From an uncultured Candidatus Saccharibacteria bacterium (GTDB lineage: Bacteria; Patescibacteriota; Saccharimonadia; Saccharimonadales; UBA10212), in NCBI GenBank assembly GCA_964460855.1, contig CAYWQH010000003.1, forward strand, positions 617 to 64,616: a DNA stretch of 64,000 nt. Direction: 5' to 3'. The notes below the pieces were generated by a model that was given only the letters and a program-made list of their open reading frames with translations, was not told where the DNA came from and made no database searches. Positions within the stretch are counted from its first letter, which is position 1. Every line of letters begins with the position of its first letter. This document shows positions 10,360 through 55,177 of the stretch, piece after piece. The translations under genes and the position numbers were made by a program.

Positions 10360-10973
10360 CCAGCGCGTTTTTTTAAATATTTAGGCATTTCATATCTGGA
10401 ATAGCTCCGGAACAATCCTCGCCCGTAAATAATCCGGCAGAGGCATTCGGCCTCCATTTTGGCGCCCCGCAGGGCATTACGCGGTTTAATTTCGTTCGGC
10501 AGTCCGCAAAAAGGGAAGATCGTATCGGTGTCCATTACCGACCAGCCATCGGTTAAAGGTATAACTTTCTTTAGCTGCAGCATCTTGGCGTAAGCCAAGC
10601 TATGCAAGTCTATTGAGCGGCGGTGCAGGCGGAGGGATAGGCCACACTGCTCGGCTTTGGCGTTAATGAAAGGCACGTCAAAGGCCGCAATATGCATGCC
10701 GCCAACGATTTTTTCGTTGCGGTTTTGTAGCCATTTATCGAAATCATAAAGCAATTGCTTGGTGCTGGCTTTGTCTTTGCTATGGGCTTCTTCGGGTGTA
10801 AAGCCATTAATCTCTAAAGCTTCGGCATCGATCTTTTCGCCCTGCCTAACGCGGCACTCGCCGTAAAATGTATCTTGAGGCCGGGCTAAATCAACCGCGC
10901 CAATTGCTAATAAACCGTTTTTCTCAGCTGAAAGGCCGGATGTCTCAATATCCAAAACTACCATTGCTAACAT
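10356..10973 (-). CDS. DEDD-family 3'-5' exonuclease (DnaQ/epsilon-like domain)
   Basis: Exo I motif VVLDIETSGL. Later IAAFDVPFI and HRRSIDLHSL are consistent with DEDDh exonucleases. Confidence 0.85.
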   Translation of the reverse strand: MLAMVVLDIETSGLSAEKNGLLAIGAVDLARPQDTFYGECRVRQGEKIDAEALEINGFTPEEAHSKDKASTKQLLYDFDKWLQNRNEKIVGGMHIAAFDVPFINAKAEQCGLSLRLHRRSIDLHSLAYAKMLQLKKVIPLTDGWSVMDTDTIFPFCGLPNEIKPRNALRGAKMEAECLCRIIYGRGLFRSYSRYEMPKYLKKRAG

Positions 10974-30513: not shown

Positions 30514-31638
30514 ATGGAACCGCAATCCAGTATTCCGGCTGTCCAGCCCCGGCAGGGCAGCGACCTTGACCACCAGCGTTTAGTGGCACTGCTTAACAGC
30601 ATGGCCGACGGCGTGATTGCCACCGACGAAAATGCCAAAATCGTGTTGAGCAACGGCGCGGCGCTAAACATACTCGATGTTAACGATACGCTGACCAATA
30701 AAAATTTGGCCGAAGTTTTTAAACTAACGGATAAGATGGGGCATAACGTCAATTTCCAGGACGTGGTTTTGAATGCTAAAACCGCCTACGTCACCCGCGA
30801 CTGGAAAATTACCCTAAGTGACGGCAGCGACGTAAACCTATATGTAAGTATCGCCCCGGTACACCTCGGTTTTGGTATTGGCGGCCAGCAAGGCTGGGTA
30901 ATACTGCTGCGCGATATCACCCGCGAAAAATCATTAGAAGAAGAGCGCGAAGAGTTTATTAGCGTGGTCAGCCACGAACTGCGCACGCCTATCGCCATAT
31001 CTGAGGGTTACGTCAGCAACACGCTGATGTTTGCCGAGCGCAACCCCAGCACCGACCCCAAACTTATCAAGATGCTAAACGATACCCACGACCAGGTAGT
31101 GTTTTTAGCTAATATGATTAATGACTTATCGACCTTGTCGCGCGCCGAGCGCGGCAAGTTGGAAATTACCGTCGAATCGATTAACGTTCATGACTTATTA
31201 AACTCACTAGTAAAAGATTACGAGCCATCGGCCAGCCGCAAGAACCTTACGATAAACGCCCAGCCGGACGAAAACCTGGAAATTTTGCAAAGCTGTACAC
31301 TTTACGTGCGCGAAATACTTCAAAACTTTATAACCAATGCCATTAAATATACCGAGCAGGGCGGGGTAACAATTAGCGCCCATAACCACGAAGGCGGCGT
31401 AATGTTCGAAGTAACCGACACCGGCATCGGCATAAGCAAGCCCGACCAGGAAAAAGTTTTTGATAAATTCTTTAGAAGCGAAGACTTCCGGACACGCAAA
31501 AACAACGGCACCGGCCTGGGCCTTTACGTAACCATGAAGCTAGCCCGCATGCTGCACGCCGAAATCGAGCTTCAAAGCGAACTCAACCGCGGCAGCACAT
31601 TCCGGATTTTTATACCCAATATGGAACTTACCCAGTAG
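30514..31638 (+). CDS. cytoplasmic sensor histidine kinase (PAS-HisKA-HATPase_c), orphan
   Basis: H-box SVVSHELRTPI, N-box NFITNAIKYT, G-boxes DTGIGI and GTGLGL. No TM segment and no adjacent response regulator. Confidence 0.9.
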   Translation: MEPQSSIPAVQPRQGSDLDHQRLVALLNSMADGVIATDENAKIVLSNGAALNILDVNDTLTNKNLAEVFKLTDKMGHNVNFQDVVLNAKTAYVTRDWKITLSDGSDVNLYVSIAPVHLGFGIGGQQGWVILLRDITREKSLEEEREEFISVVSHELRTPIAISEGYVSNTLMFAERNPSTDPKLIKMLNDTHDQVVFLANMINDLSTLSRAERGKLEITVESINVHDLLNSLVKDYEPSASRKNLTINAQPDENLEILQSCTLYVREILQNFITNAIKYTEQGGVTISAHNHEGGVMFEVTDTGIGISKPDQEKVFDKFFRSEDFRTRKNNGTGLGLYVTMKLARMLHAEIELQSELNRGSTFRIFIPNMELTQ

Positions 31639-33196
31639 ATTTTAGCTTTTTAGCAGCCGGCTTGGCGGATAGGGGCGGCAAACTGGGGAATACCTGCATG
31701 ATCGGCAGGCAAATGTTGCGGCCCTTCCAGTTAACTTCGGAAAATTCATATTTAAACATCGAAATATTTTGCAGAATTATTTCACTTAAAACTACACTTG
31801 GAAAACTGATTATTGCCAGCGGCCAGGTCCGGTTATTAGTGGCAAATGTTATAAACAAATGGCCGGCGGTAAATAGGATAGCAGCCACGGCGGCCATTAC
31901 TGTCCACCAGTCGGCATTAAGCCAGATTAAGCCCGGCAGAAGGGCGGCAAACGGGGCAACGAGCACCAGAAGTTCCAACAGGCTTACCAGCATGACGCTT
32001 TCCGGGCGGCGGTGCACCGTAGGGTAGCGGGCGCGGATAGCCGTGCCGATTTGGTCTTTGGTTGGCTTAACCGTGTAAATTTTTAGGCTTGCGGAAGTGC
32101 GCAGCATTTTATAATTATTAGTTTCGGCCAGCCGCCGGGCAAAAACGGCTTCGGGCAATATGTTACGCGACAAAGCTTTAAAGCCGCCGAGCTGCTTATA
32201 GGCCGCGGCCGTAATAAACCAGCATGTGCTCAGCACGGGCGGATGGCTTTTAATTTTATCGGGGATAGCCAGCTCCAGCCAATATCTCATCGGCTGTATT
32301 AAAACTCCCAGCCAGCTATGGCCGGTGCGCCGCGGCATAACAGAAACCATATCGGCGCCCGACTTGTGCATTAAATCGATTATGGAACTTAGGGCGTGCC
32401 CGTCGAGCCTAACGTCAGCGCCGATAAACCCGTAAACCGAACCGTTGGATTCGCTAACCAAGCGGTCGTAAGCCTGGTTTTTGGCAAGCCAGCTATCTTT
32501 GGGCTCTTTGCCTTGGATAAAGCGCACACCGTCGTGGGCAAAAGCTTTAATTGCCTGAGGGGTTTTATCTTGGCTGCAATCGTCTAATACGATAACTTCC
32601 AGCTTTTGGTAGTCGCTTTTGATGGCTGCCTGGATACATTCGGTAACTTCAGCCGTTTCGTTACGGGCAGGGATTAGCAGGCTGATGGCTGGCAGTTTAG
32701 CGGTCCGCTGCCCGGCGGATTTAGCGTTAGCCGGGTTTGGCGTCATTGCCAGCAGCTGCCGGACAATAATTACCAAAGTTGCCAACGAGGTTAGTGCCGA
32801 TACGGCCATAACTATTAATAAGGCAGTGCCCAGGCCGGCAATATTCCATTTTTCGTGAACCAGCCACCAGCCGCCATATAAAACCAGCTGGCTGGCCAGC
32901 AAAATTAACGAGCTGCGGCGCACAACGGATTGCAGTTCTTGCTCACCGCGCCTACACTCGACCAACCTCAAAACATTTATCATTCGGTAAAAAGTAACGA
33001 TTACCGCTAAAAATCCAGCTGCGGATGGCATATGTACGGCCAAAGCGGCGGCGCCAAACATTGAGGTGATGCCGGATATACCGCCACAAACCGTCCGCCA
33101 ATTGCCCGGTTTGGATAAAATAGCCAGCAGCTCAAAAGCCAAACCTATGGCTAACATAATCAGGCTGACTACCAGCGGATCCGGCAACGTTATCAT
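31628..33196 (-). CDS. membrane-embedded GT2 glycosyltransferase
   Basis: N-terminal TM bundle, the GT2 core LLIPARNETAEV...VIVLDDCSQDKT, and C-terminal TM helices. Confidence 0.8.
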   Translation of the reverse strand: MITLPDPLVVSLIMLAIGLAFELLAILSKPGNWRTVCGGISGITSMFGAAALAVHMPSAAGFLAVIVTFYRMINVLRLVECRRGEQELQSVVRRSSLILLASQLVLYGGWWLVHEKWNIAGLGTALLIVMAVSALTSLATLVIIVRQLLAMTPNPANAKSAGQRTAKLPAISLLIPARNETAEVTECIQAAIKSDYQKLEVIVLDDCSQDKTPQAIKAFAHDGVRFIQGKEPKDSWLAKNQAYDRLVSESNGSVYGFIGADVRLDGHALSSIIDLMHKSGADMVSVMPRRTGHSWLGVLIQPMRYWLELAIPDKIKSHPPVLSTCWFITAAAYKQLGGFKALSRNILPEAVFARRLAETNNYKMLRTSASLKIYTVKPTKDQIGTAIRARYPTVHRRPESVMLVSLLELLVLVAPFAALLPGLIWLNADWWTVMAAVAAILFTAGHLFITFATNNRTWPLAIISFPSVVLSEIILQNISMFKYEFSEVNWKGRNICLPIMQVFPSLPPLSAKPAAKKLKSTG

Positions 33197-33230
33197 TTAA
33201 AACCAATATAGCATAAGCGACGGCCAGCAA

Positions 33231-33259
33231 TTGACATAAGTCTGATAGCCATATAGTAT
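33231..33259 (+). promoter_or_regulatory. consensus promoter of secE-nusG (TTGACA-17 nt-TAGTAT)
   Basis: Hexamers at 33231-33236 and 33254-33259. Confidence 0.6.
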
Positions 33260-33269
33260 TGACAGCAAT

Positions 33270-33298
33270 GGCCTACAGATATTGTAGGCTTTTTATTT
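33270..33298 (+). terminator. promoter-proximal terminator-like hairpin in the secE leader
   Basis: GCCTACA-GATAT-TGTAGGC followed by TTTTTATTT. It begins about 5 nt after the predicted TSS and ends 18 nt before ATG 33316. Confidence 0.45.
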
Positions 33299-33315
33299 GG
33301 AGACAATAACGGAGT

Positions 33316-33732
33316 ATGTCTGACGACAAACCAGCCAGGCGGCCGCGGATCCGCAAGCCGGCGCCAACCATGCGCGAGCAAGCAGAGCAGGCCCGCAATA
33401 AAGCCGAAGCCGACGCCCAGCCTAAAAAAGTCCGCGCTACAGCCAGCAAGGTAACCAAACCGGTAAAATCTGGTTTTAGGTGGCTTGGCAAAGAGTATTA
33501 TTTGCCGATGCCGGAAAATAAAGCCGGGCGGGTTCTAAATAAGCGCCGCCGGTTTATCCCGCGCTACTTCCGCGAATCGTGGGCAGAGGTTAGGCTGGTA
33601 ACCTGGCCGAGCCGCCGCGAAAGCTGGCGCTTAACCGGCGCCGTATTCGTATTCGCGATAATTTTTGGACTAGCCGTGGCTGTAGTAGACAAAGGGTTAG
33701 ACGCGGCCTTTAAGCATTTAATTTTGAAATAA
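33316..33732 (+). CDS. secE: preprotein translocase subunit SecE with a long basic N-terminal extension
   Basis: C-terminal ESWAEVRLVTWPSRRESWRLTGAVFVFAIIFGLAVAVVDKGL is the SecE core. It is preceded by about 80 aa rich in K/R/A/P. Confidence 0.85.
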   Translation: MSDDKPARRPRIRKPAPTMREQAEQARNKAEADAQPKKVRATASKVTKPVKSGFRWLGKEYYLPMPENKAGRVLNKRRRFIPRYFRESWAEVRLVTWPSRRESWRLTGAVFVFAIIFGLAVAVVDKGLDAAFKHLILK

Positions 33733-33748
33733 GGAGCAGATAACAATA

Positions 33749-34291
33749 ATGAGTAAGCGGTACGATTCGACCAAACAATGGTATGCCATCCATACCTATA
33801 GCGGTTATGAAGAAAAAGTGGCCGAGAGTATCCGCCAGCGCGCTGATTCTTTGGATATGAAAGATAAAATCTTTCAGGTTTTAGTGCCTAAAGAAAAAAT
33901 GATTGAAATTAAAAACGGCAAGCGTAAAGTCGTAGAAAAGCGGATCTTCCAGGGTTATGTCTTAGTACAAATGAAAATGAGCGAAGACGCCTGGTACATC
34001 GTGCGCAATACGCCAAACGTTACAGGCTTTGTGGGTACCGGTACCGAGCCAACACCGGTTGCTACCGACGAAATGGAAAAAATCATGAAGCGAATGGGCC
34101 GCGAAGAACCCAAGCACAAGATCGATTACCGCGTGGGCGAAGTGGTTAACATTATCGATGGCCCGTTCAAGGGCTTCGACGGCGCCATCAACGAAATTGA
34201 CGAGCAAAAAGGCAAGCTAAAAGTTTTGGTTAACATGTTCGGCCGCGAAACTCCAGTTGAGCTGGACAGCCTTCAAGTAAAAAGAGTATAA
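33749..34291 (+). CDS. nusG: transcription termination/antitermination factor NusG
   Basis: WYAIHTYSGYEEKV (NGN domain) and C-terminal KOW GEVVNIIDGPFKGFDGAINEID. AAGGAG RBS. Confidence 0.95.
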   Translation: MSKRYDSTKQWYAIHTYSGYEEKVAESIRQRADSLDMKDKIFQVLVPKEKMIEIKNGKRKVVEKRIFQGYVLVQMKMSEDAWYIVRNTPNVTGFVGTGTEPTPVATDEMEKIMKRMGREEPKHKIDYRVGEVVNIIDGPFKGFDGAINEIDEQKGKLKVLVNMFGRETPVELDSLQVKRV

Positions 34292-34341
34292 ATCATACTT
34301 AGCCGGGTGGTAATTCATTAATACCTTAGGAGATTAAGTTT

Positions 34342-34836
34342 ATGGAATTGCCAAAATTTTTAGAAAAACTTAAAGGAAACAAACCAAGGGTTTACTCCGA
34401 GGAGGAGATTTTAGCCGCAAACCAAAATTTACAGGCAGGCGATGAAATAGTAGTTATTGATGTCTTGGCTAACCCGACCGCTACTAACCTACTGGATGAA
34501 GCTGAGATTCGCTATCTTATAGATTATGCAGATTTTAAGCCCGCACGAGACTCATTGGGCAGAATAGCCACTTTAGGTGCCGGGCATGAGTCAGGCGTTA
34601 TTATGGAATTTGACCCGACAGTACAAAGAGTTATTCCTTTGCCGCCTAATTACCACGAATTTGATCCTTATATTTTCTCCAAGGCATTGGATAAGAAAAA
34701 CGTTGCGGTAATCGAATCTCCTGAAGCTATAGTTTGGCCTCCGGAAGGTAATGATAGAGAAATATGGGAAAACTATGCGGCAAGGTTAGATAAAGCATTG
34801 GAGGAGCGCCGCCGAAAAGGCATTCAGCGTCCCTAA
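34342..34836 (+). CDS. hypothetical protein (164 aa) inserted between nusG and rplK
   Basis: AGGAG lies 8 nt upstream of ATG. No motif recognised. Confidence 0.7.
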   Translation: MELPKFLEKLKGNKPRVYSEEEILAANQNLQAGDEIVVIDVLANPTATNLLDEAEIRYLIDYADFKPARDSLGRIATLGAGHESGVIMEFDPTVQRVIPLPPNYHEFDPYIFSKALDKKNVAVIESPEAIVWPPEGNDREIWENYAARLDKALEERRRKGIQRP

Positions 34837-34846
34837 TGATAACGGC

Positions 34847-34881
34847 GGCGCGGGGGAGGAGAATTCACTCGACCCCGCGCC
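34847..34881. other. 9-bp GC hairpin between convergent genes
   Basis: GGCGCGGGG-N17-CCCCGCGCC. No T-run on either side. Confidence 0.6.
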
Positions 34882-34892
34882 AGGAACCCGAA

Positions 34893-35042
34893 CTAGTGCG
34901 TGACGTATGGGCTGTGCGGATGGAAGTGGACGCTGAAGTCGTCCGCACCGAAACCCACGCTGAAGTGGAAGCTCGTGGCACAGAGCGCCACGATGATGAT
35001 CACGAAGACGACGAGCGCGATCACCAAGGGGGGAGCGTTCAT
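34893..35042 (-). CDS. 49-aa hydrophobic peptide (type I toxin-like), GC3-rich
   Basis: Below the ORF-track cutoff; my translation gives MNAPPLVIALVVFVIIIVALCATSFHFSVGFGADDFSVHFHPHSPYVTH. AAAGGTG lies 5 nt upstream. It has its own TTGCCT-17-TATAAA promoter. Hand count: 90/150 G+C, and 44 of 50 codons end in G/C. Confidence 0.5.
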   Translation of the reverse strand: MNAPPLVIALVVFVIIIVALCATSFHFSVGFGADDFSVHFHPHSPYVTH

Positions 35043-35074
35043 CTCACACCTTTCCTAAGTAGTCGGACTTTACT

Positions 35075-35103
35075 TTTATACGCCGAAAATGCTGGCAAGG
35101 CAA
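35075..35103 (-). promoter_or_regulatory. promoter of the 49-aa ORF (TTGCCT-17 nt-TATAAA on the minus strand)
   Basis: The reverse complement of 35098-35103 is TTGCCT and of 35075-35080 is TATAAA. The predicted 5' UTR is about 26 nt. Confidence 0.5.
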
Positions 35104-35177
35104 CTGCTTACGTTTAGTAGACAAACAGATGTAAATGATGTAAAATACCGCGGTTATACGCAAACAGTAGGAGCAAT

Positions 35178-35615
35178 ATGGCAGACGGAAAGCCTGTAAA
35201 GGCGAATTTGAAAATGCGCATCCGCGGCGGACAAGCCAGCGCGGCGCCGCCGGTTGGAAGTACTTTGGGCCAGCACGGTGTAAATATGATGGATTTTATA
35301 AATCCGTTTAACGAACAAACCAAAGACCGCATGGGCCAGAACCTGACGGTGCATATTACTATTTATGACGACCGCACCATGAGTTGGCGGGTGGTTGGCG
35401 CGCCAACCGACGATTTAATTCGGGCCAAATTGGGAATTGATAAAGGATCCGGGCGGCCCAACAGCGAAAAAATCAGCAAAAAGCTCAGCGATAATGCTTT
35501 AACCGAAATCGCCGAAGCCAAAGCATCGGATATGAACACCGAAGATATCGACGCCGTTAAAAAAATGGTTGCCGGCACCGCCCGCAGCATGGGCGTCGAA
35601 GTCGAGGCCAAATAA
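35178..35615 (+). CDS. rplK: 50S ribosomal protein L11
   Basis: GGQASAAPPVGSTLGQHGVNMMDFINPFNEQT and the C-terminal GTARSMG are classic L11. Confidence 0.95.
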   Translation: MADGKPVKANLKMRIRGGQASAAPPVGSTLGQHGVNMMDFINPFNEQTKDRMGQNLTVHITIYDDRTMSWRVVGAPTDDLIRAKLGIDKGSGRPNSEKISKKLSDNALTEIAEAKASDMNTEDIDAVKKMVAGTARSMGVEVEAK

Positions 35616-35677
35616 TTAGAGAATAATTAATGCAGTGGGAGGCTTAAAAAGCCGCACGCACCACCAAGGAGAAAACC

Positions 35678-36673
35678 ATGGCAGAAGCCAAAAAGACCGT
35701 TACTAAAAAAGCGGCAACCAAGAAAACCACAAAAGCCGCCGAAAAGCCGGTAAAAGAAGAAATTAAATTAACCGACGCTCCGGTAGAAGCCGTAGCGGCC
35801 GAACTGGTAGTTAAAGACGTTGAGCCAAAACCGCTGGCCAAAGCCGGCAAAAGAAGCCCGAAAGCGGTTGCCGAAGCCGAAGCAAAAGAAGAAAAAGAAA
35901 CCCGCAAAGTTACTGCAAAAGCCGCAGAAACCGGAGACAAGCAGCCAGCCAAGCCGGCCGCCAAGCCGGCCCGCAGCCGCCTGGAACGGGCAGGCAAAAA
36001 ACTGCGCCAAGCTGCCGAACAAGTTGATAAATCCAAAGAATATGCGCTAAGCGAAGCCCTGGGCCTGGCCGTTAAGATCAGCAGCACCAAATTTGATTCG
36101 ACGGTTGAGCTGCACATCAATTTGGGCGTCGACCCCAAACAAGCCGACCAAAACATACGCGATAACCTGGTTTTGCCAGCTGGCTCCGGCAAAGCTGTTA
36201 GGGTTGCTGTATTTGCCGACGCCGCCGAAGCCGCGGCCGCTAAAAAAGCCGGGGCCGACATTGCGGGGGCTGATGAATTTTTGCAACAACTTGATAAAGA
36301 AAACTTCAATTTTGATATTTTAATCGCCACGCCGGCTGTTATGCCTAAGCTAGGTAAGTACGCCCGGCTGCTTGGCCCCAAGGGTTTAATGCCAAACCCC
36401 AAAAGCGGTACGGTTACGACCGATGTAAGTAAGGCAGTTAGTGAAGCCAAGGCCGGCCGCGTAGAGTACCGCGTAGACAGCGCCGGCATAGTACATGTTG
36501 GCATTGGCAAAGCCAGTTTCGGCGCCGACAAACTGGCCCAAAACGCCAACGCCGTATTTACCAGCATCCGGTCCGCCAAGCCGGCCAGCTTAAAAGGCAC
36601 CTACTTCCGCTCGGCCTTCGTTACCACTACTATGGGCCCCAGCATCAAACTGTCGATAGCTGACTTGGCATAA
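35678..36673 (+). CDS. rplA: 50S ribosomal protein L1 with a ~105-aa Lys/Ala/Pro-rich N-terminal extension
   Basis: The L1 core runs from about aa 107 (KEYALSEALGLAVKIS...LMPNPKSGTVT...). AAGGAG lies 6 nt before ATG 35678, which supports the extended start. Confidence 0.95.
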   Translation: MAEAKKTVTKKAATKKTTKAAEKPVKEEIKLTDAPVEAVAAELVVKDVEPKPLAKAGKRSPKAVAEAEAKEEKETRKVTAKAAETGDKQPAKPAAKPARSRLERAGKKLRQAAEQVDKSKEYALSEALGLAVKISSTKFDSTVELHINLGVDPKQADQNIRDNLVLPAGSGKAVRVAVFADAAEAAAAKKAGADIAGADEFLQQLDKENFNFDILIATPAVMPKLGKYARLLGPKGLMPNPKSGTVTTDVSKAVSEAKAGRVEYRVDSAGIVHVGIGKASFGADKLAQNANAVFTSIRSAKPASLKGTYFRSAFVTTTMGPSIKLSIADLA

Positions 36674-36745
36674 AAAATAACTCTAATGCTTGCAACCCCT
36701 ATAAACAAGGGCGTAAACTACTAATTAGTTAATTTTTTGGAAGAT

Positions 36746-38725
36746 ATGGCAAATAACGGCCTATTGTTAGCTATTGAGGGCATCGACGGTTCTGGCCGCG
36801 AAGCCCAAATTAAACTTCTCGCCGAACGGCTTAAAGCTTCGGGGCGGGCGGTTACGGTTGTCGATTTTCCGCAAACCGAATCGCCGTCCAGTTACTTTAT
36901 TAAAGAACTCGAGGCCGATGCCTACTTGGGCTTTCCGCCGAACCCATACCGCGGCGCGATATTCTACGCGCTGGATTACTTCCAGGCCGAAACCGGAATC
37001 AAATCGGCGCTGGCAAAAGGTCACGTTGTAATAGTCAGCCGCCAGTTATCTTACGCAATTGCCAAACAAGCTAATTTTTTTAAAGAAAGCGAGCACCGCC
37101 GGGCATTTTACTTATGGGTCGAGAACCTGGCATACCAGCTTTTTAGCCTCAACCGGCCGAACAAAACTTTCGTGCTTGATATTGATCCCAAGGCTGCCGC
37201 CCGGCTAAGCGGCCAGGCCAAGCGCTCCAAATATTTGGAAGCCGAAGCCCTGGTTTATAAAGAGTTGGCCGGGCTATTCACTAAAGATTACTTGCCAATC
37301 GGCAACGATAAAGAACATAAAGCCCAGAGCATAGTAGCGATTAATAATGAAATCTGGCAAGCTATCGAAGCTGAGTTGCCTCCGGCTAAAAACAGGCGGT
37401 CGGCCAAGGTAATTAACCTGAGTGATGTAGGCAGCGACCGGCTATATGATTTTGACGACAACGGCAGGATGGAACTTACCAGCCGCGGCCAAAAAGTACT
37501 GGAAAAACTGGTAGCTAACAGCCAATCAGACGTGTGGCTGCTTAAACCGGGCGCGTTTGACCGTATTGGAGCCAACCAAGACTTAAAGGTCCAGTTTTTA
37601 GATTATACCCAGGCGGAAACGCCGCTAAAAGTGAATGCGGCAAACCTAAAATTTATTATCGATAACATTTCGCTGCTCGGATTAACGCAATTGGTAGTTT
37701 TAAAGGGAGGCTTGCCGACAGCCAGGTTGCAAACCGTGGTTAAGCCGGATATTACTTATTACGAGCCGGAAATGCGCAAAAAAGACCTGCCTCAAAAGTA
37801 CCGCGAAAGCCAAAATAATTTACGCTCGGCTTACAATTTAAGCCGCCAAAAAATAGGCGAGGGCGACCACTCCAGTCCGATCTTGCAGCCGCTGGCAGTC
37901 TTGGGACAAGCCAGCCTGGAAATTTCGAAGGCCGATTTTAGGCGGCTATATAGCATGCTGGCCAGCAACCAGCTTACTGAACTGCGCAAACTAGCTGCCA
38001 GCTTAAACGACAACGCCCAAATGCTGCTTGGCAAAAACTGGCTCGGCAATACTGCCGATAAGAAAAAACCCGACGGCCAAAAATTGGCGGCGTTACTGCA
38101 AACTATGACAAACGATAAATTGGGCGACGGCGCCGACTTGTTAACTTATCTTGGCAGTAATATCCGCAATGAATTCGACCTTGTAGACAGCATCGTTTTT
38201 AACTACGTGGAGCAGCCGGGATACAGCCTGGCCGACGTGACCGGCGAGTGGAGTTATGACCAACAAGCTATTGTGCTAGAAAATTTTATGGCAACGGCTA
38301 AAAGCCGCGGCTCGGACCCAATACTCCAAACCGTTATCTACGAGTTTGAACTATTGATAAACTGCAAAGATATTTTGGACATTCAGCAAGAGTGGCCGGC
38401 AGCGGTTATACAAACCCAGCAATTTTCTCCCCGTTGGGGTTACCTATATCCGGACCAGGTAGAAGCCGCCGGCATGGGCGACTTATATGATAAAGCATTT
38501 GATTTAAGCTTAAGTTTATATAGCCAAATGCAAGACGAAAAGATCGGGGCTTCGGCCCAATATGCCGTATTGGCTGGCCACCGGCAGCTTACCCGCGTTA
38601 GTTTGAGCGCCAATGACTTACTGCTGGAAATTAGCGATAAACAGTCTTGTGCCTATAAATTGAAAACGATGCTGGTCGAGGAAATCAGCCAGCACCATCC
38701 GTTAATCGGATCATTTTTAGGCTGA
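36746..38725 (+). CDS. Tmk-like domain fused to two ThyX-like repeats, all with degenerate catalytic motifs
   Basis: N terminus LLLAIEGIDGSGREAQ (Tmk P-loop with K->R and S/T->E) and FPQTESPSSYFIKELE. The C-terminal 430 aa show two by-eye ThyX-pattern repeats (IYEFELLIN...QEW...QTQQFSPRWGY...AQYAVLAGHRQLTRVSLSANDLLLEISDKQ). Start taken at ATG 36746; the ORF-track start is TTG 36737. Confidence 0.75.
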   Translation: MANNGLLLAIEGIDGSGREAQIKLLAERLKASGRAVTVVDFPQTESPSSYFIKELEADAYLGFPPNPYRGAIFYALDYFQAETGIKSALAKGHVVIVSRQLSYAIAKQANFFKESEHRRAFYLWVENLAYQLFSLNRPNKTFVLDIDPKAAARLSGQAKRSKYLEAEALVYKELAGLFTKDYLPIGNDKEHKAQSIVAINNEIWQAIEAELPPAKNRRSAKVINLSDVGSDRLYDFDDNGRMELTSRGQKVLEKLVANSQSDVWLLKPGAFDRIGANQDLKVQFLDYTQAETPLKVNAANLKFIIDNISLLGLTQLVVLKGGLPTARLQTVVKPDITYYEPEMRKKDLPQKYRESQNNLRSAYNLSRQKIGEGDHSSPILQPLAVLGQASLEISKADFRRLYSMLASNQLTELRKLAASLNDNAQMLLGKNWLGNTADKKKPDGQKLAALLQTMTNDKLGDGADLLTYLGSNIRNEFDLVDSIVFNYVEQPGYSLADVTGEWSYDQQAIVLENFMATAKSRGSDPILQTVIYEFELLINCKDILDIQQEWPAAVIQTQQFSPRWGYLYPDQVEAAGMGDLYDKAFDLSLSLYSQMQDEKIGASAQYAVLAGHRQLTRVSLSANDLLLEISDKQSCAYKLKTMLVEEISQHHPLIGSFLG

Positions 38726-49136: not shown

Positions 49137-50216
49137 TCAGGCGGTTTCGGCGGCGGTTTTAGGCCGGCGCTGGTCGAGGTAATCCGCAAGCAGGATTTTG
49201 ATACAGCCGGCAACTGGTATGGCTATCAGGGCGCCGATAAAACCGGCAAAGCCAATGCCTAAAATAGCGGCAATAAACACTAACAGCGGCGACAATTCGT
49301 TTTGGCGGCTTTGGATGTAGGGCTGCAAGGTAGCGTTTTCGATTTGGAAATAAATTATAAAGTAAGCCAGCATAATCAATGCCAGGGTAGGTGAGGCGAA
49401 TAAGCACATTAATATAACAACCGAAGCAGCCAAAGGGTTGCCGATCATCGGGATAATCCCGAACACCGCGACAATACTGGCCAGGGCGACGGCGTTAATA
49501 GAAACGCCCAGCAAAGTACTGGAAATCAGCAGCGCTACCAAGGCGAACGTACCGGCGCAAATAGCCAGCAATAATTGGCCGTTTACAAAGCCGGTAACCA
49601 TTTTATACATCTTGCGGGCCAATTGCTTATCGTGTTCCCGGCGCTTTGCCGGCATTACTGCCCAAAAGTGGTCAATTAATACGGGGCCTTCTACCAGCAT
49701 CATAAAAGTCATAACTACTACGGCGATTATTGATACTATGGTTTCGCCGATGCGCTTGCCGGTACTTAGCACCGGCCCGCGGATATCTTTGAATTTTTCG
49801 CTGAAGTCATTGGCGGAAGATTGCAGCTGCTCGTCAATTTTTAGCCGGTCCGCCAGGCGGGCTACACTGTTATCGCTGGTTTTAAAGTTTTGAACCGTTT
49901 CCGGTACGCTTTGGACGAATTCGCGGGCCTGCTGGAAGATTGGCGGACCGGTCAGACTAAAGAAAGCAATTATCACTACCAAAATTGATATATAGGCTAC
50001 GGCCGTAGCCCGGGCCCGGCTATCGATTTTAAGGTGCCTGGTAATCCAGCTGACGGCCGGGTTCAGCGCCAGCGCAAAAAAGAAACTCATAAAAATCAGG
50101 GTCAGCGGGCGGATAATGCTGCTAAAAAAGTTAAACAGCAGCAAAGCCACAATAATAATAAAAATGACCCGCACAATTGTACGGTTAGAAATATTTACCG
50201 TAACCGATCTGTTCAT
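49137..50216 (-). CDS. AI-2E family transporter (PerM/YhhT-like)
   Basis: 359 aa with about 8 TM segments and family-typical topology and length. Sequence-pattern recall only. Confidence 0.75.
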   Translation of the reverse strand: MNRSVTVNISNRTIVRVIFIIIVALLLFNFFSSIIRPLTLIFMSFFFALALNPAVSWITRHLKIDSRARATAVAYISILVVIIAFFSLTGPPIFQQAREFVQSVPETVQNFKTSDNSVARLADRLKIDEQLQSSANDFSEKFKDIRGPVLSTGKRIGETIVSIIAVVVMTFMMLVEGPVLIDHFWAVMPAKRREHDKQLARKMYKMVTGFVNGQLLLAICAGTFALVALLISSTLLGVSINAVALASIVAVFGIIPMIGNPLAASVVILMCLFASPTLALIMLAYFIIYFQIENATLQPYIQSRQNELSPLLVFIAAILGIGFAGFIGALIAIPVAGCIKILLADYLDQRRPKTAAETA

Positions 50217-50236: not shown

Positions 50237-51370
50237 TTAGCGCCTTTTGGCAACTGAACTCAAATATGCTTGTTCAATTTGCTGGCCGACAACCGGAACG
50301 TCGTACTGTTTTACGGCCTCCTTTAACCACCTCGTAACCTCTTGATGCTCGGGGCTGTCAGCTAGAAAATATTTTATTTTTTCGGCGAATTTTAAGGTGT
50401 CGAGGGGGTCGAATAGCAGCTCTGGGCGATCGCCCAAAACCGAAGCGTAGCCGGGGTTGTTGCCGCCCAGGACAATACGGCTACCAGCTGCCATGGCTTC
50501 GATTAGAACTATGCCGAAACTTTCGCCGCCGGTTGACGGGTAGCAGGCAATATCGGCGCTGGCCAGTAGCGGGGCTTTGTCGGCCTCGTCGATAAAACCC
50601 AGGAATTTAACATTTTCGCTCAGGCCCATTTTGGCGACTTCTGATTCCAACTTTTGACGCATCGGGCCGCCGCCGGCAATCAACAGTTCGGTATGGGGCA
50701 TACTGGCATGCACTAAACGGAAGGCTTTAATTAAATGTTGGCAGCCTTTCCGCTCTACCAGCCGGCCTAAAAATACAATGCGCTGGGCACCGGGTGCTTT
50801 GGGCCACTTCAGTTTATTTTCGAAGTGATAAAAAGGGCTGAGGTCCAGGGTATTTGGCGATACGTCGGTATTAATGCCAAAAGCCCGCGCTGCAAAAACT
50901 TTAGCCGGCTGGCTGACGCTAAAAAATTGGTCGAAACGCCGGAGGCTCCGGCCATATACCACTTTAAGCAGCCGGCAGCCCCAAAATTGGATCTTGCCCA
51001 CGGGCATAATATGGAATGTGCCGATAACCGCCGACTTTTCAGAAGCTTGGTTTATAATTTTTTGGGCTAAAAAAGGGGAGTACGGAGTTTGTACATGAAA
51101 AACGTCGAAATTTTCATTGGCTAATAGGCCATTTATCCGTCCGCGGCTGGCCGGCAGTGGCATAACGACCCGGTTGCCATTGAACTTAACTTTTATTGTG
51201 CGGCTTAAACTATGCACCGGCCCGCCGGCCCATTCTTTTAACTTGGCCTGGCTGGTCAAATAATGCACGTTATGCCCTTGGCCCGACAACCAGGCGCCTA
51301 ATGACTTAACATACTGCTGGACGCCATCATTGCTATCCAGTGTGGTATCAATGACCAACGCTATTTTCAT
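50237..51370 (-). CDS. glycosyltransferase family 4 (GT-B)
   Basis: MKIALVIDTTLDSNDGVQQYV and YPSTGGESFGIVLIEAMAAGSRIV (E-x7-E). Confidence 0.85.
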   Translation of the reverse strand: MKIALVIDTTLDSNDGVQQYVKSLGAWLSGQGHNVHYLTSQAKLKEWAGGPVHSLSRTIKVKFNGNRVVMPLPASRGRINGLLANENFDVFHVQTPYSPFLAQKIINQASEKSAVIGTFHIMPVGKIQFWGCRLLKVVYGRSLRRFDQFFSVSQPAKVFAARAFGINTDVSPNTLDLSPFYHFENKLKWPKAPGAQRIVFLGRLVERKGCQHLIKAFRLVHASMPHTELLIAGGGPMRQKLESEVAKMGLSENVKFLGFIDEADKAPLLASADIACYPSTGGESFGIVLIEAMAAGSRIVLGGNNPGYASVLGDRPELLFDPLDTLKFAEKIKYFLADSPEHQEVTRWLKEAVKQYDVPVVGQQIEQAYLSSVAKRR

Positions 51371-52512
51371 GTTGTAAGCTGTTTGACGTTGGGATAAGTT
51401 TTAATAGCTGACTCGTATAGCTTTTCGTATTGGTCGACGATGTTCTTATAATCGAATTGTTTAACGTAATCTCTAGACCATTTAAGCCACAGCTGGGCCA
51501 TTTCGCGGTCGTATAGCATAAGATCGAGGCGGCGGGCAAAATCGTTGGCGTCCAAAGGGTTAACCAGCGACAACGCGCCGCGCTCATGCAAAACGCTTTC
51601 GTAGCCGGGGTTATCACCGGCAATTACCGGAGTGCCGGCAGCCATAGCTTCGAGTAAGACGATACCGAAGCTTTCACCGTAGCGGGAAGGCGCGCAAAAC
51701 ACGTCGGCGTTTTGCAGTAGTTTGATTTTATCTTTTTCGCTTAAAAAGCCGCGGAATTCGACGCGGGGAATTTCGTATTCTTCGACGTGGTCTTCCAGCC
51801 GCCGTCGTTCGGGGCCGTCGCCGCCAATTACCAGCTTTACGTCGTCGCGGGCGGCTGCCAGGACCTGGAAAGCATCCAACAAATAGCGCACGCCTTTGCG
51901 CTTTTCGAGCCGGCCGACAAACAGTATGGTTTTATGCGAGTGCTCGGTTTTAACGGTTTTAGCCGGGCTGAATTTGGCAATATTAACCCCGTTAGGGATA
52001 ATGGGCACCGATTCGTCAAGCAGCGCTTCTACCAGCTCGGCCGCCGAAGGCGACACGGCGCTGAAACCGTGCAAGTATTTAATAACCGATCGGCCATAGG
52101 GTATTAGTGAGCGGATAATTGTTTTAGTTGTAAACTGGTCGGGAATTTTGGCATGGAACGTTCCGACATTAACGCACTGCGACCGGCTGAGTAGCTGCCA
52201 GCCAAGCATCGGTACCCAAGGTTCGTGAAAATGCAGCAAATCGAACTTTTCGGCCGCTAAAAATTTATCGATAACTTCGGTATCGACGGCTGCGGCCAAT
52301 TGGCCCTGGGTACTGAATAACCGGTTAAAGCTGCGGGCGCCTCCAATACAAATCATATCCTGCGGTAAACTACCCTTAAATCCTCGCGGGCGAGGCGTAA
52401 TAACGCGCACCTCGTGGCCCCGGCGCCGCAGCTCGTCGTACATCGCCATGACGCACTCCGGCACACCGCCTCCGCGGAACATGTTATACGGGCAAACAAG
52501 GCCGATTTTCAT
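51367..52512 (-). CDS. glycosyltransferase family 4 (GT-B)
   Basis: MKIGLVCPYNMFRGGGVPE and CAPSRYGESFGIVLLEAMAAGTPVI. A 4-nt overlap with its downstream paralog. Confidence 0.85.
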   Translation of the reverse strand: MKIGLVCPYNMFRGGGVPECVMAMYDELRRRGHEVRVITPRPRGFKGSLPQDMICIGGARSFNRLFSTQGQLAAAVDTEVIDKFLAAEKFDLLHFHEPWVPMLGWQLLSRSQCVNVGTFHAKIPDQFTTKTIIRSLIPYGRSVIKYLHGFSAVSPSAAELVEALLDESVPIIPNGVNIAKFSPAKTVKTEHSHKTILFVGRLEKRKGVRYLLDAFQVLAAARDDVKLVIGGDGPERRRLEDHVEEYEIPRVEFRGFLSEKDKIKLLQNADVFCAPSRYGESFGIVLLEAMAAGTPVIAGDNPGYESVLHERGALSLVNPLDANDFARRLDLMLYDREMAQLWLKWSRDYVKQFDYKNIVDQYEKLYESAIKTYPNVKQLTT

Positions 52513-53474: not shown

Positions 53475-54236
53475 ATGTACGGTAAAATACAAACAATGGC
53501 AAGAAAGAAAAACTTTATGAGCTACAAACTATTTTTTTGCGTGGCATTAGTCGTTATGGCGCTCGTTGGCATTAAAGTTTATAACGCCAACCACGAAGGC
53601 GGATTGTCGGTTGCTAAAAATGGCCCTAAGAACATGGGCAAAGTAGGGACGCTGTCGACGACCGACCCCGCCAGCGCGTGGGTGATAGTAAATAAAAAAC
53701 ACACCATATCCCCCAGTTACGCCCCGAAAAGCTTAGTGAACCCCAATATTCCTCTCCGGTTGGCAGCTGACCAGGATGAAATGAAAGTTGATAGCCGGAT
53801 GTCGGCGGCACTGGAGAGTTTGGTGGCCGCCGCCAACCAACAAGGGCTGCATTTACGCCTGGAAAGTGGTTACCGCTCGTATGACGCCCAAAGCCAGCTG
53901 TATAACTATTACTTATCCACTTTGGGCCAGGCCGAAACCGAGCGAAGCAGCGCCAAACCCGGCACCAGCGAGCACCAAACCGGACTGGCGGCCGACTTAG
54001 GCAGGACTGATGGGGAATGTGCCGTCCAAACTTGCTTTGCTGATACTAACGAAGGCAAATGGCTGGGCCAACACGCCGCCGATTATGGTTTTATCATACG
54101 TTATCCCAATGGGAAGGAATCTGTTACCGGTTATGAATACGAACCTTGGCATGTTAGGTTCGTGGGCACCGATTTGGCAAAAAAATTATCGGCCAGCCGC
54201 CAAACAATGGAAGAATATTTTAAAGTTTCCGGCTAG
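53475..54236 (+). CDS. VanY-type M15 D-alanyl-D-alanine carboxypeptidase
   Basis: SGYRSYDAQ, SEHQTGLAADL and YEPWHVRF, with an N-terminal TM anchor. An alternative start at ATG 53496 is possible. Confidence 0.85.
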   Translation: MYGKIQTMARKKNFMSYKLFFCVALVVMALVGIKVYNANHEGGLSVAKNGPKNMGKVGTLSTTDPASAWVIVNKKHTISPSYAPKSLVNPNIPLRLAADQDEMKVDSRMSAALESLVAAANQQGLHLRLESGYRSYDAQSQLYNYYLSTLGQAETERSSAKPGTSEHQTGLAADLGRTDGECAVQTCFADTNEGKWLGQHAADYGFIIRYPNGKESVTGYEYEPWHVRFVGTDLAKKLSASRQTMEEYFKVSG

Positions 54237-55177
54237 TTGTGCTGGTGGACAGCTTCGGCGCCAACCCAAACAAACTCCCAAGGTTCGGGCTCGGGGCCCT
54301 GCAATGCCGCGCCTTTAGGGTAGCTGGGGATCCAGCCGGCACTTTTGGCGGATTCGTAATTGTTATTTTGGATCCAGTTGTCGCAGATACTGCCAGCGAA
54401 AGCCACAAACCGGCCGCCCGGATAACAGGCTAAATCCACGGTATAGCCGGTGTGGTGCCGCGAATAGCCGGGCGGGGCGGTTACATCAAGCGTGGCATTA
54501 ACGGCGCCATCCTGGTTGCCAGCGGCAATGGCCTCGATGTTGCCTCCATGGCCGGCTAACCGCTCCATAAATAAATGGCGCTGGTAGTCAATCGACCGGT
54601 AGGCCGACAGTAACTCCAGTGGGATGTTTTGGTTTTTAGCGGCGGCTTTAAGTTGGCGCCACGACTGCAAAGCCAGTGGCTGCAATAAATCGTCGCTTTG
54701 CAAATTAAGTTCGCCGGTTTTTACTATTGGCTCTACTGGCACGGATCGCAATGTGAATCCACGGTCTTTTGCCAGCTGGAAAATCCGGGCGTCTGCCGCC
54801 GAATTGCCGCTTATAACCGGTTCGGTTGTCAACGGTTCGGTATTGGGATAAGTCGGTACCACCTGGTCGTATAGTTGCTTAAACTGATCCGGGGTAAAAG
54901 TCTTTAGCGCGCCTAACGTAATTGGCGCGGTGGCAGTCGATTTTGAAACTTTTTTGCCGGAAGAAACGGGGTTTTTTAGGGCTATATGGCTATCGATGGA
55001 CGGCCGGTTCAAAAAGTAATAACAAACTCCGGCGGCAACTAAAAGCAAAACGACAAAGCCGATGAAGTTCTTGGACGGCCGTTTGCCGGCGTGCATTACT
55101 TTTTCGGTGTGATGCCCTACAGAATGCCGTTTTTTGGTTTTTTTAACCTTAACGGCGTGGTGGTTAACAACTCGCAT
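54233..55177 (-). CDS. VanY-type M15 D-alanyl-D-alanine carboxypeptidase (paralog)
   Basis: SAYRSIDYQ, SRHHTGYTVDL and EPWEFVWVG, with a TM anchor. The 3' ends of the two paralogs overlap by 4 nt. Confidence 0.85.
   Translation of the reverse strand: MRVVNHHAVKVKKTKKRHSVGHHTEKVMHAGKRPSKNFIGFVVLLLVAAGVCYYFLNRPSIDSHIALKNPVSSGKKVSKSTATAPITLGALKTFTPDQFKQLYDQVVPTYPNTEPLTTEPVISGNSAADARIFQLAKDRGFTLRSVPVEPIVKTGELNLQSDDLLQPLALQSWRQLKAAAKNQNIPLELLSAYRSIDYQRHLFMERLAGHGGNIEAIAAGNQDGAVNATLDVTAPPGYSRHHTGYTVDLACYPGGRFVAFAGSICDNWIQNNNYESAKSAGWIPSYPKGAALQGPEPEPWEFVWVGAEAVHQHN

Follow-up and report, generated by a model that had tools for sequence, protein, structure and literature searches.

A lineage-specific insert at the variable nusG-rplK junction of a Saccharibacteria genome, with a candidate minus-strand membrane peptide

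The window analyzed here is a 64,000-nucleotide stretch of DNA from an uncultured Candidatus Saccharibacteria bacterium. Within it, as the layout was read from the sequence, nusG and rplK are separated by 886 bp. The genes and features at this junction are as follows.

33316-33732, plus strand: secE
33749-34291, plus strand: nusG, the last conserved gene of the secE-nusG unit
34263-34292, plus strand: promoter-like TGGACA-18-TATAAA spanning the nusG stop (a consensus match only, 10 of 12)
34342-34836, plus strand: orf164, a 164-aa orphan, with AGGAG 9 nt upstream
34806-34851, plus strand: alternative 9-bp stem GCGCCGCCG / CGGCGGCGC, an inverted repeat whose right arm shares bases with the main hairpin's left arm
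34834-34842, plus strand: triple in-frame stop TAA TGA TAA ending orf164, read from the sequence
34836-35117, plus strand: orf93, an acidic ORF of 93 aa, rich in His and Arg, that was called in Logan contigs and in the NCBI record
34847-34881: main hairpin, stem-loop GGCGCGGGG / CCCCGCGCC, with 9 of 9 G-C pairs and a 17-nt loop, in the interval between the orf164 and pep49 stops
34893-35042, minus strand: pep49, an ORF of 49 aa; its product would have one very hydrophobic helix (residues ~5-25), with 6 His and 2 Asp in the C-terminal tail
35056-35047, minus strand: Shine-Dalgarno (SD)-like AGGAAAGGTG, 4 nt upstream of the pep49 ATG, read from the sequence
35103-35075, minus strand: promoter-like TTGCCT-17-TATAAA (9 of 12 match; below the threshold of the promoter-finding program)
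35118-35146, plus strand: native rplK promoter TAGACA-17-TAAAAT, homologous to TAGACAACAGRGGT...TAnAAT of relatives
35153-35177, plus strand: rplK leader in a short form, GGTTATACGCAAACAGTAGGAGCAAT, matching GTTACGCAC...AGGAG in relatives L014 and L016
35178-35615, plus strand: rplK (ribosomal protein L11)
35678-36673, plus strand: rplA

The nusG product matched the Pfam NusG family (4.5e-30) plus KOW and was 88-97% identical to its counterparts in 80 Saccharimonadales relatives; the rplK product matched the Pfam N-terminal and C-terminal domains of L11. The secE-nusG unit, orf164, rplK, and rplA all lie on the plus strand, and the neighboring genes have GC3 values of 0.37-0.60. Sequence conservation resumes at approximately 35118, where native DNA restarts with the rplK promoter and leader, the latter lacking the GCUUC-loop hairpin found in most relatives. 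Because rplK has its own conserved promoter, secE-nusG | rplKA is a boundary between two transcription units. The entire 886 bp was identical in contigs from two separate sequencing runs, and the possibility of an assembly chimera or other artefact was ruled out on that basis.

The sequence-only reading had taken nusG-rplK adjacency as near-universal in bacteria, and had pictured DNA invading a locus that the cell could not afford to lose. Neither part held for this clade when the spacer was compared across it. Among 70 Saccharimonadales relatives the gap ranged from 0 to 3343 bp (0-9 bp in 11, 67-212 bp in 17, and 220-3343 bp in 42). The ORFs in these gaps were mostly unrelated orphans with almost no homology among them; most lay on the nusG strand, and in many relatives the gap held two or three ORFs in a row on one strand. 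In L003, the closest relative (NusG 97%), rplK begins 9 nt past nusG, and a search for an "empty-site" relative closer than NusG 97% found none. We conclude that the nusG-rplK junction is a permissive, variable inter-operon boundary in Saccharimonadales. Since it is dispensable DNA in this clade, the argument that the insert cannot be lost does not apply, and position at this junction gives no special protection against loss. The insert is lineage-specific: orf164, pep49, and orf93 were absent from all 80 relatives, including by phmmer against 6854 six-frame ORFs.

The first ORF of the insert, orf164, is present as originally described, with its AGGAG ribosome-binding site. A native codon model favored it over intergenic sequence by 18 nats, with all other frames strongly negative, and it is probably a real, translated gene. 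Its composition and codon usage are unlike those of native genes: it is rich in T-ending codons, its GC3 is 0.37 vs. 0.51 for native genes, and the share of C-ending codons among the two-fold NNY codons is 0.32, vs. 0.56 in native genes and 0.92 (22 of 24) in pep49. The consensus match across the nusG stop could possibly serve as its own promoter. Searches for homologues returned only self-hits from 5.8 billion proteins (word-indexed) and 1.84 billion representatives (exhaustive phmmer), and a single-sequence AlphaFold model (pLDDT 35) was useless.

The 9-bp GC hairpin was found exactly as proposed. It lies 10 nt past the orf164 stop and 11 nt past the pep49 stop, and is one of only seven hairpins of its class in the window. 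Four of the seven are intergenic, and those four have T-rich tails. The tails of the main hairpin are AGGAACCCGAAC on the plus strand and GCCGTTATCATT on the minus strand, with no U-tract on either, and the terminator-finding program does not list it; of the features of an intrinsic terminator it thus has the G+C-rich stem-loop at a gene 3' end and lacks the U-tract. U-less ("I-shaped") stem-loop terminators have been described in Actinobacteria, and the hairpin resembles them in its G+C-only stem right after a stop with no U-tract following. It differs in that the intergenic comparables in this window are all T-tailed, and such activity in Saccharibacteria is putative. Lying between convergent stops, the stem-loop might terminate or stabilize the transcripts of both orf164 and pep49. 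The alternative stem GCGCCGCCG / CGGCGGCGC is possibly due to chance.

The minus-strand ORF yields exactly the peptide quoted in the sequence-only reading. The N-terminal sequences of pep49 and orf93 are MNAPPLVIALVV... and MITAARGRR..., respectively. The maximum 19-residue Kyte-Doolittle value of pep49 is 3.14, and it has neither Lys nor Arg, an uncommon trait in membrane peptides. The reported composition was reproduced (60.0% G+C, with 44 of 50 codons ending in G or C), a codon bias with a binomial P of 1.4e-5 at that G+C content; GC1/2/3 are 0.56/0.36/0.88, against a native GC3 of 0.51. The phase-specific G+C of this 150-nt stretch, 0.90, is the maximum in the window (next best 0.82; 99.9th percentile 0.80).

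The TTGCCT-17-TATAAA promoter and the AAAGGTG-type ribosome-binding site claimed for this ORF are both present when read directly on the minus strand. Promoter-like sites of this quality have a background of 0.68 per kb per strand, and the SD-type motif criterion one of 4.8%, so that these signals are modest, not compelling. The putative 5' UTR of pep49 would be short (~25 nt). Folding of the minus-strand RNA gave a z of -2.6 against shuffles (-1.6 for the plus strand), and in the predicted mRNA fold the SD and start region pair with the 3' end of the ORF.

The search for relatives of the peptide and of the 164-aa protein produced only self-hits in protein and metagenome collections. For pep49, orf164, and orf93 these were the only matches among 5.8 billion proteins (word-indexed); tblastn-confirmed scans of JGI metagenome and viral contigs gave no relatives of the ORFs; plasmids and phages searched by DNA and by protein contained no homologue; and Pfam, NCBIfam, PHROG, PADLOC, and PDB had no match (E <= 1-10 for family searches). 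A degenerate DNA pattern for GADDFSVHFH had one chance match only, within what reads by eye, and we presume to be, a GGDEF-EAL-type diguanylate cyclase/phosphodiesterase; searches by word or by pattern have little power for a hydrophobic peptide of 49 aa. Other candidates were also considered. An empty Rfam scan of 33000-37000 (E <= 10) ruled out a known structured RNA. A repeat or mobile element was rejected, there being no second copy of the insert in the 64-kb window or at the relatives' loci; the 12-nt direct repeats on either side of the G+C-rich module (34810 and 35081, 11 of 12) are no better than expected by chance in this region.

The 49 codons of pep49 are, triplet for triplet, the exact reverse complements of codons of orf93. 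Because the two ORFs share triplet boundaries on opposite strands, the GC3 of pep49 (0.88) is simply the GC1 of orf93 (0.88). On the plus strand these triplets have a GC3 of 0.54-0.58, which is native-like and similar to that of nusG, rplK, and rplA. The mirror frame is open because the partner strand lacks TTA, CTA, and TCA codons. It is unlikely, though the leading rival reading, that orf93 is the real gene, encoding an acidic, His/Arg-rich, probably disordered orphan whose translation is coupled to that of orf164 (its ATG starts within the orf164 stop in a TAATG overlap) and co-transcribed with secE-nusG-orf164, pep49 being the mirror ORF. The "foreign" GC3 would then be G-rich first positions (Val, Asp, Glu, Ala, and Gly codons) read backwards. 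The exact coincidence of codon boundaries and the native-like GC3 fit this alternative, as does the native codon score of the orf93 core (+0.29 per codon, equal to rplK, with pep49 at ~0), and the per-codon likelihood of orf93 lies within 0.8 sd of native genes. Moreover, gene callers chose orf93, and consecutive same-strand ORFs, as noted above, are common in the relatives' gaps. The missing SD of orf93 is not disqualifying, as many genes in this genome have none, and an SD is a weak discriminator: at the longest-ORF start, one is present in only 14 of this window's 55 long ORFs.

Several observations stand against orf93. Its first positions are 62% G and 2% T, beyond all 956 native windows and the genuine genes of relatives, and its core has no Lys, Asn, or Ile. 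The periodicity is limited to approximately 34880-35045, with edges that match the ATG and stop of pep49 and not the ends of orf93 (G at phase 0 in 31 of 50 triplets of the core vs. 5 of 18 and 7 of 25 in the flanks), and the flanks of 19 and 25 codons score ~0. Codons 4-16 of orf93 would contain the 9-bp all-GC hairpin, the three in-frame stops of orf164 occupy the supposed coupling site, and the C-terminal 25 codons would cross an AT-rich spacer up to the -35 box of rplK. On the minus-strand reading, the first codon position is unremarkable (G 17, A 11, C 11, T 9) and the third (C 31, G 11, T 5, A 1) has the pattern of high-GC genes.

These opposing signals were calibrated with two codon models. 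Under a high-GC codon model pep49 was ahead by 16.5 nats, and by native codon score orf93 was ahead by 13.5 nats. The joint statistic, the log likelihood of pep49 under the high-GC model minus that of orf93 under the native model, was +10.3 nats. Real native genes gave -42 +/- 15, with a maximum of -8.3 among 956 windows, and ORFs of relatives gave a mean of -36 +/- 13. A value of at least +10.3 was reached in 3 of 3968 of the relatives' windows, all in one ORF (L029 3599-4528, minus strand), which lies opposite secE-nusG genes and which we therefore regard as a mis-picked antisense ORF. High-GC genes gave +27.7 +/- 7.1, of which the observed value is the 3rd percentile; only 4.6% of the antisense frames of high-GC genes are as native-looking as the orf93 core. 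Native genes that are G+C-rich at one codon position do exist (up to GC1 0.80 and GC3 0.78 in 50-codon windows). The joint statistic, the boundaries of the periodicity, and the position of the hairpin all fall on the pep49 side. The third frame, a plus-strand 52-aa ORF at 34900-35058, has the same wobble phase and was rejected: its GC1 is below its GC2, it has 13% Lys, and its high-GC model score is below that of pep49.

We therefore favor a minus-strand peptide of high-GC origin over the other readings, and hold this view tentatively, at somewhat less than an even chance for the explanation as a whole. On this account the ~820 bases from the nusG stop to the rplK promoter (34292-35117) would be lineage-specific filler DNA, a mosaic of two non-native pieces. 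Piece one would be orf164, on the operon strand. Piece two would be a G+C-rich module of ~205 bp (34840-35045), recently captured from high-GC DNA, for which the actinobacterial hosts of Saccharibacteria are a plausible source. The module would carry a complete minus-strand ORF encoding a single-pass membrane peptide of 49 aa, with a U-less GC stem-loop of its own downstream; pep49 would be convergent with orf164 and divergent from the rplK promoter, with its weak promoter-like and SD-like sites in the 73-bp spacer. The peptide would be ordinary, probably near-neutral small membrane protein cargo and not an addiction module, and orf93 would be its mirror image. Observed directly are the layout, the base composition, the lack of homologues, the junction variability, and the conservation of the rplK promoter; we infer the coding strand from composition alone, and expression, membrane insertion, and foreign origin go with it. 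The proposal of a high-GC donor, although the better-fitting model, was not supported as it stood: it depends on the choice of the minus strand, and no donor was found. Of the marks of horizontal acquisition, the locus has atypical composition (pep49 on the minus strand, and orf164) and a patchy distribution, and lacks a donor or homologue.

A further alternative, which we judge improbable, is that neither small ORF is expressed and that the core is a decaying foreign coding fragment, such as the part of a larger high-GC gene that encoded a terminal transmembrane segment, stranded at a permissive site between operons; the hairpin would then merely end the secE-nusG-orf164 transcript. A relic of this kind would account for the single copy and the absence of homologues anywhere, for promoter and SD matches that are individually chance-like, and for relatives' junctions full of apparently throw-away orphan sequence. 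The only DNA matches were weak (E 0.07-0.9), mostly under annotated membrane-protein genes (CPBP protease, SctV, and MFS transporter) of genera that are G+C-rich, among them Rhizobium, Natrialba, and Ensifer. A decaying fragment is harder to reconcile with a periodic segment whose limits fall within a few bases of an ATG and a stop and which contains neither a frameshift nor an internal stop, with a composition that has not drifted toward the native one (GC3 0.88), and with SD-like and promoter-like sites at the right distances.

The sequence-only reading had gone further and proposed that pep49 is a type I toxin restrained by antisense read-through from nusG or orf164, the pair being stabilized by its placement in an essential gene cluster. 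We consider this very improbable. The ORF is indeed small and very hydrophobic, assuming that the minus strand codes, and it is convergent with the upstream transcription unit. The predicted pairing of the SD and start region with the 3' end (z -2.6) also fits, long-range 5'-3' pairing being known in hok-type mRNAs. Like the ORFs of Hok/Sok, Fst/RNAII, TisB/IstR-1, and TxpA/RatA, pep49 has fewer than 60 aa and one hydrophobic helix, is intergenic, and is placed where antisense transcription is geometrically possible. However, there is no plus-strand promoter-like site between 34300 and 35117 for an antisense RNA, and the strong hairpin lies between orf164 and pep49, so that only read-through past it could be antisense. 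Such read-through is unneeded because rplK has its own conserved promoter, whose transcript would start ~85 nt from the putative pep49 start in the opposite direction. No toxin or defence family was matched in Pfam, NCBIfam, PHROG, or PADLOC, and the ORF is single-copy in the 64 kb, absent from all 80 relatives, and located at a junction that is dispensable in the clade. Unlike the known systems, pep49 has no recognizable antisense RNA gene or promoter, and no family membership, repeat copies, or conservation; its putative 5' UTR is short (~25 nt), it has no positively charged residues, and any toxicity would be putative. Among the papers searched, none mentioned both type I toxin-antitoxin and Patescibacteria. 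That pep49 is a membrane-active peptide gene captured from a high-GC actinobacterial host and silenced by convergent secE-nusG-orf164 transcription is scarcely credible; if true, the Candidate Phyla Radiation would have its first type I-like toxin module, and the gene would directly record gene flow from host to epibiont.

The preferred explanation, a captured minus-strand peptide gene, invites comparison with two other classes. Like bacterial small membrane proteins such as AcrZ, KdpF, MgtS, and CydX, pep49 has fewer than 50 aa, a single predicted transmembrane helix, and the form of a stand-alone mini-gene; it differs in having no homology to them, no functional partner gene nearby, an unusual His/Asp-rich tail, and no Lys or Arg. 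The insert as a whole resembles lineage-specific orphan (ORFan) genes in variable inter-operon spacers, being short, atypical in codon usage, and without close-relative copies or detectable homologues, at a site where relatives carry other unrelated ORFs. It differs from them in its site, the secE-nusG | rplKA boundary, where most bacteria have a compact arrangement, and in that one of its two pieces is G+C-rich vs. the usual A+T-rich composition of orphans. On its own, the case adds two orphan ORFs to those already known from metagenome-assembled genomes. Across the Saccharimonadales, the boundary itself serves as a nursery, or a graveyard, for orphan genes, and it is a convenient natural site for the study of their gain and loss.

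If the minus-strand reading is true, the public annotation is on the wrong strand and this genome holds a small piece of high-GC DNA, which would fit uptake of host DNA by an epibiont. As in other mirror ("shadow") ORFs, triplet boundaries are common to pep49 and orf93, codon positions 1 and 3 face each other, and a hydrophobic stretch encoded on one strand is matched by an acidic stretch on the opposite one; here, in reverse of the usual case, composition and boundaries would point to the annotated longer ORF as the shadow. The comparison also shows that a "foreign GC3" may be an artefact of the choice of strand, since GC3 on one strand is GC1 on the other, and how that choice can be calibrated empirically. 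Hydrophobicity was uninformative as to strand: in 401 native genes, windows matching pep49 in hydrophobicity were about as rare as windows matching orf93 in hydrophilicity.

The insert between nusG and rplK is lineage-specific, compositionally mosaic orphan DNA in an inter-operon spacer that varies across the clade; the G+C-rich part probably represents a mini-gene, captured from high-GC DNA, that encodes a small membrane peptide. Both kinds of element, orphan cargo and a small hydrophobic ORF, are known ones. The source of the window is a member of Saccharimonadales (Saccharibacteria, Candidate Phyla Radiation). NusG identity was 88–97% across 80 genomes that each represent a species, almost all of them labeled Saccharibacteria or Saccharimonadales. 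The locus is arranged as follows.

Features of the nusG–rplK locus
33316–33732, plus: secE
33749–34291, plus: nusG
34292–35117: variable insert
34342–34836, plus: orf164, 164 aa, with AGGAG 9 nt upstream
34836–35117, plus: orf93, 93 aa
about 34840–35045: G+C-rich stretch between orf164 and rplK
34847–34881: stem-loop with an all-GC 9-bp stem
34893–35042, minus: pep49, 49 aa
35118–35177, plus: rplK promoter and leader
35178–35615, plus: rplK
35678–36673, plus: rplA

The sequence-only reading of this junction was accurate as an observation and right only in part as an interpretation. The 886-bp gap, the orf164 ribosome-binding site and the GC hairpin that it reported were all found, and the minus-strand ORF encodes exactly the peptide it quoted. 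The composition of pep49 was also as described (60% G+C; 44 of 50 codons ending in G or C; GC1/2/3 of 0.56/0.36/0.88), and both TTGCCT-17-TATAAA and AGGAAAGGTG are present upstream. An assembly chimera was ruled out, because contigs from two separate sequencing runs contained the same 886 bp, base for base.

The near-universal adjacency of nusG and rplK assumed in that reading did not hold in this clade. Among 70 relatives with both genes on the fetched locus, the gap varied from 0 to 3343 bp, being 0–9 bp in 11, 67–212 bp in 17, and 220–3343 bp in 42; in a few further relatives, such as L076, no rplK lay within 4 kb. Most of the inserted ORFs shared the strand of nusG, commonly in tandem sets of two or three; almost all were mutually unrelated, mostly singletons. 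The only recurrent cargo was a sigma-70 factor (L010, L012, L013, and L062), two pairs of related ORFs, and one loose group that by eye looks like small Gly/Ala-rich two-helix membrane proteins. The cargo also included a DUF6829 protein (L021), and most of the larger junction ORFs of relatives had no match in Pfam. The junction is a clade-wide hotspot. The insert separates two transcription units; likewise, in Escherichia coli secE-nusG and rplKAJL are separate units. The argument that the peptide occupied an indispensable locus fails, because the insert sits in a variable spacer between these units. Its deletion would restore what is seen in many relatives; in L003, the closest of them, rplK begins 9 nt after the nusG stop.

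Approximately 12 small proteins with Gly/Ala-rich hydrophobic stretches start 2–17 nt past the nusG stop (for example in L024, L055, L007, L081, L039, and L053). At L076 1171–4489, at least four minus-strand ORFs, none of which matched Pfam, come after nusG in place of rplK. One encodes a 144-aa membrane-like protein with a GC3 of 0.78 in a genome of 50% G+C, and its plus-strand mirror (91 aa, rich in Val, Asp, Arg, and Gly) is closely orf93-like.

In relatives with a gap, a conserved promoter, TAGACAACAGRGGT ... TAnAAT, precedes rplK, and the leader begins GTTACGCAC. Given that both are present in the window at 35118–35177, native DNA resumes at about 35118. Most relatives (within L005–L082; e.g., L053, L038, L073, and L058) have this promoter and a structured leader in the 25–110 nt upstream of rplK, the leader having the order 5'-GUUACGCAC, a CUACU-AAAA-GGUAG hairpin, a second hairpin, UUCGAAAGGAG, and the start codon. 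In 5 of the 21 sequences, the first hairpin had A-U pairs exchanged for U-A; the stem of the second was wholly different between genomes, and its loop always contained GCUUC(N)A. Rfam gave no match at the gathering threshold in 17 loci. The leader is a candidate for autoregulation by a ribosomal protein (L1 or L11); the window, like L014 and L016, has only its short form, which lacks the GCUUC hairpin.

The first ORF of the insert, orf164, is most likely a real gene. Its 164 codons are open in DNA of 43% G+C behind a good ribosome-binding site. Under a native codon model, with 48 long ORFs from the window as its training set, it scored +18 nats versus intergenic DNA, with the other five frames at −55 to −125, and its sense-versus-antisense score was within typical native-gene values. 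Its synonymous usage is non-native, with a GC3 of 0.37 versus 0.51 and a C-ending share of NNY codons of 0.32 versus 0.56 for native genes. Neither a word-indexed search across 5.8 billion proteins nor exhaustive phmmer against 1.84 billion cluster representatives found a homologue; there was no family or PDB match, and single-sequence AlphaFold yielded no confident model. To judge from these searches, orf164 is a true orphan. It ends in a triple in-frame stop, TAA TGA TAA (34834–34842).

The codon periodicity of the 150 nt of pep49 was the most extreme of the 64 kb, with a phase G+C of 0.90 and the next best stretch at 0.82 (binomial P 1.4e-5). The 49 codons of pep49 are triplet-for-triplet reverse complements of orf93 codons: the value of 0.88 is GC3 when the minus strand is read and GC1 when the plus strand is read, and the transmembrane run PPLVIALVVFVIIIVAL of pep49 mirrors the acidic run ERHDDDHEDDERDHQGG of orf93. 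Gene callers annotate orf93, not pep49; its start overlaps the orf164 stop (TAATG), and it runs as far as the rplK promoter's −35 box.

We tentatively read this module as a minus-strand gene, foreign and high-GC in origin, that encodes a small membrane peptide; on this reading the G+C-rich part has been annotated publicly on the wrong strand. The edges of the periodic signal fall no more than a few bases from the start and stop codons of pep49 (phase-0 G was 31/50 in the core and 5/18 and 7/25 in the orf93 flanks), and these edges, the hairpin site, the triple stop, the upstream motifs, and the first-position composition favor the minus strand. The stem-loop, one of seven of its class in 64 kb, is placed exactly between the orf164 and pep49 stops, where convergent genes would share one. 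Upstream, each at the right distance, are an SD-type motif (background 4.8%) and a site resembling a promoter (background 0.68 per kb per strand), and pep49 has an ordinary first-position composition (G > A = C > T). However, the stem-loop has no T-run on either side, the four comparable intergenic hairpins of the window all have T-rich tails, and pep49 contains no Lys or Arg.

That plus-strand orf93 is the real ORF we consider unlikely. Its triplets have a native-like GC3 (0.54–0.58), its native coding score of +0.29 per codon equals that of rplK (the pep49 reading scored about 0), and the junction context favors ORFs on the nusG strand. Nevertheless, its first positions are not ordinary (62% G, 2% T), 48 of its residues include no Lys, Asn, or Ile, its flanks (19 + 25 codons) have no periodic signal and a coding score of about 0, and the stem-loop would fall in its codons 4–16. 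With a high-GC codon table from 21 genes of one high-GC mycobacteriophage (GC3 0.87), pep49 was favored by 16.5 nats. A joint statistic, LL(antisense|high-GC) minus LL(sense|native) in 48-codon windows, was +10.3 for the module. The window's real genes (956 windows) had a mean of −42 (sd 15) and a maximum of −8.3. Long ORFs of relatives (3968 windows; mean −36, sd 13) reached +10.3 in three windows, all from one minus-strand ORF (L029 3599–4528); given its position opposite the secE-nusG genes, we regard this as an antisense ORF picked in error. For the mirror statistic in real high-GC genes (mean +27.7, sd 7.1) the observed value was the 3rd percentile, and among the antisense frames of high-GC genes just 4.6% looked as native as orf93. 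By this calibration the pep49 and orf93 readings each lie in the tail of their own model, with the native-gene reading much further out.

A second perfect 9-bp GC stem (34806–34814 with 34843–34851) competes with the main hairpin and encloses the orf164 triple stop. This geometry resembles a translation-sensitive alternative pairing, which may have arisen by chance. Elsewhere, a GC-rich hairpin of 8 bp flanked on each side by a T-run (10333–10367), between convergent ORFs (9982–10359, plus; 10356–10973, minus), has the form of a textbook bidirectional terminator and would show how native terminators look here.

The foreign, high-GC origin put forward in the sequence-only reading is favored by composition if the minus strand codes, but no homologue of pep49 was found in any search run; these searches are weak for a 49-aa hydrophobic peptide because they need exact short words or 8-residue patterns. 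DNA matches were at chance level only (E 0.07–0.9), mostly beneath annotated membrane-protein genes of Rhizobium, Natrialba, Ensifer, and such, which are G+C-rich genera. Given that Actinobacteria are the hosts of Saccharibacteria, which take up DNA, it is reasonable to infer that the module was captured from a host. That it is an unexpressed relic of foreign coding DNA seems slightly less probable than a real orf93.

Nothing supports a toxin–antitoxin system at the junction, and the proposed type I pair of pep49 with antisense read-through is very improbable. Of the features that define type I systems, only the first, a small hydrophobic ORF, was seen, and it exists only if the minus strand codes; the predicted single-sequence fold of the minus-strand mRNA, pairing the start region with the ORF 3' end (z −2.6), is suggestive. 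However, no plus-strand promoter-like site able to give antisense RNA occurs in 34300–35117, the rplK promoter is directed away from pep49 without overlapping its putative 25-nt 5' UTR, and orf164 read-through must first get past the hairpin. Moreover, pep49 is single copy in a single lineage, no insert ORF matched a toxin or defense family, and no paper in the literature searched combined "type I toxin-antitoxin" with "Patescibacteria".

In the window, an SD-type motif (GGAG, GAGG, or AGGA) precedes the longest-ORF start of just 14 among 55 long ORFs. In several, a TATAAT-like box lies within about 10–20 nt of the ATG, which suggests that the genome has many leaderless or SD-less genes (example starts: 31628–33196, 49137–50216, 51367–52512, and 54233–55177, all minus); by contrast, the secE-nusG-rplKA cluster has strong AGGAG sites. 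The rplA product (331 aa) has its L1 domain only at residues 133–321, the N-terminus being extended by about 130 aa rich in Lys, Ala, and Glu. The secE product is also extended, with about 80 aa of basic character ahead of the SecE domain (residues 83–135). Downstream of rplA, a 662-aa ORF (36737–38725) takes the place of rplJ-rplL, and by eye its N-terminus (LLLAIEGIDGSGREAQ...) resembles a thymidylate-kinase P-loop.
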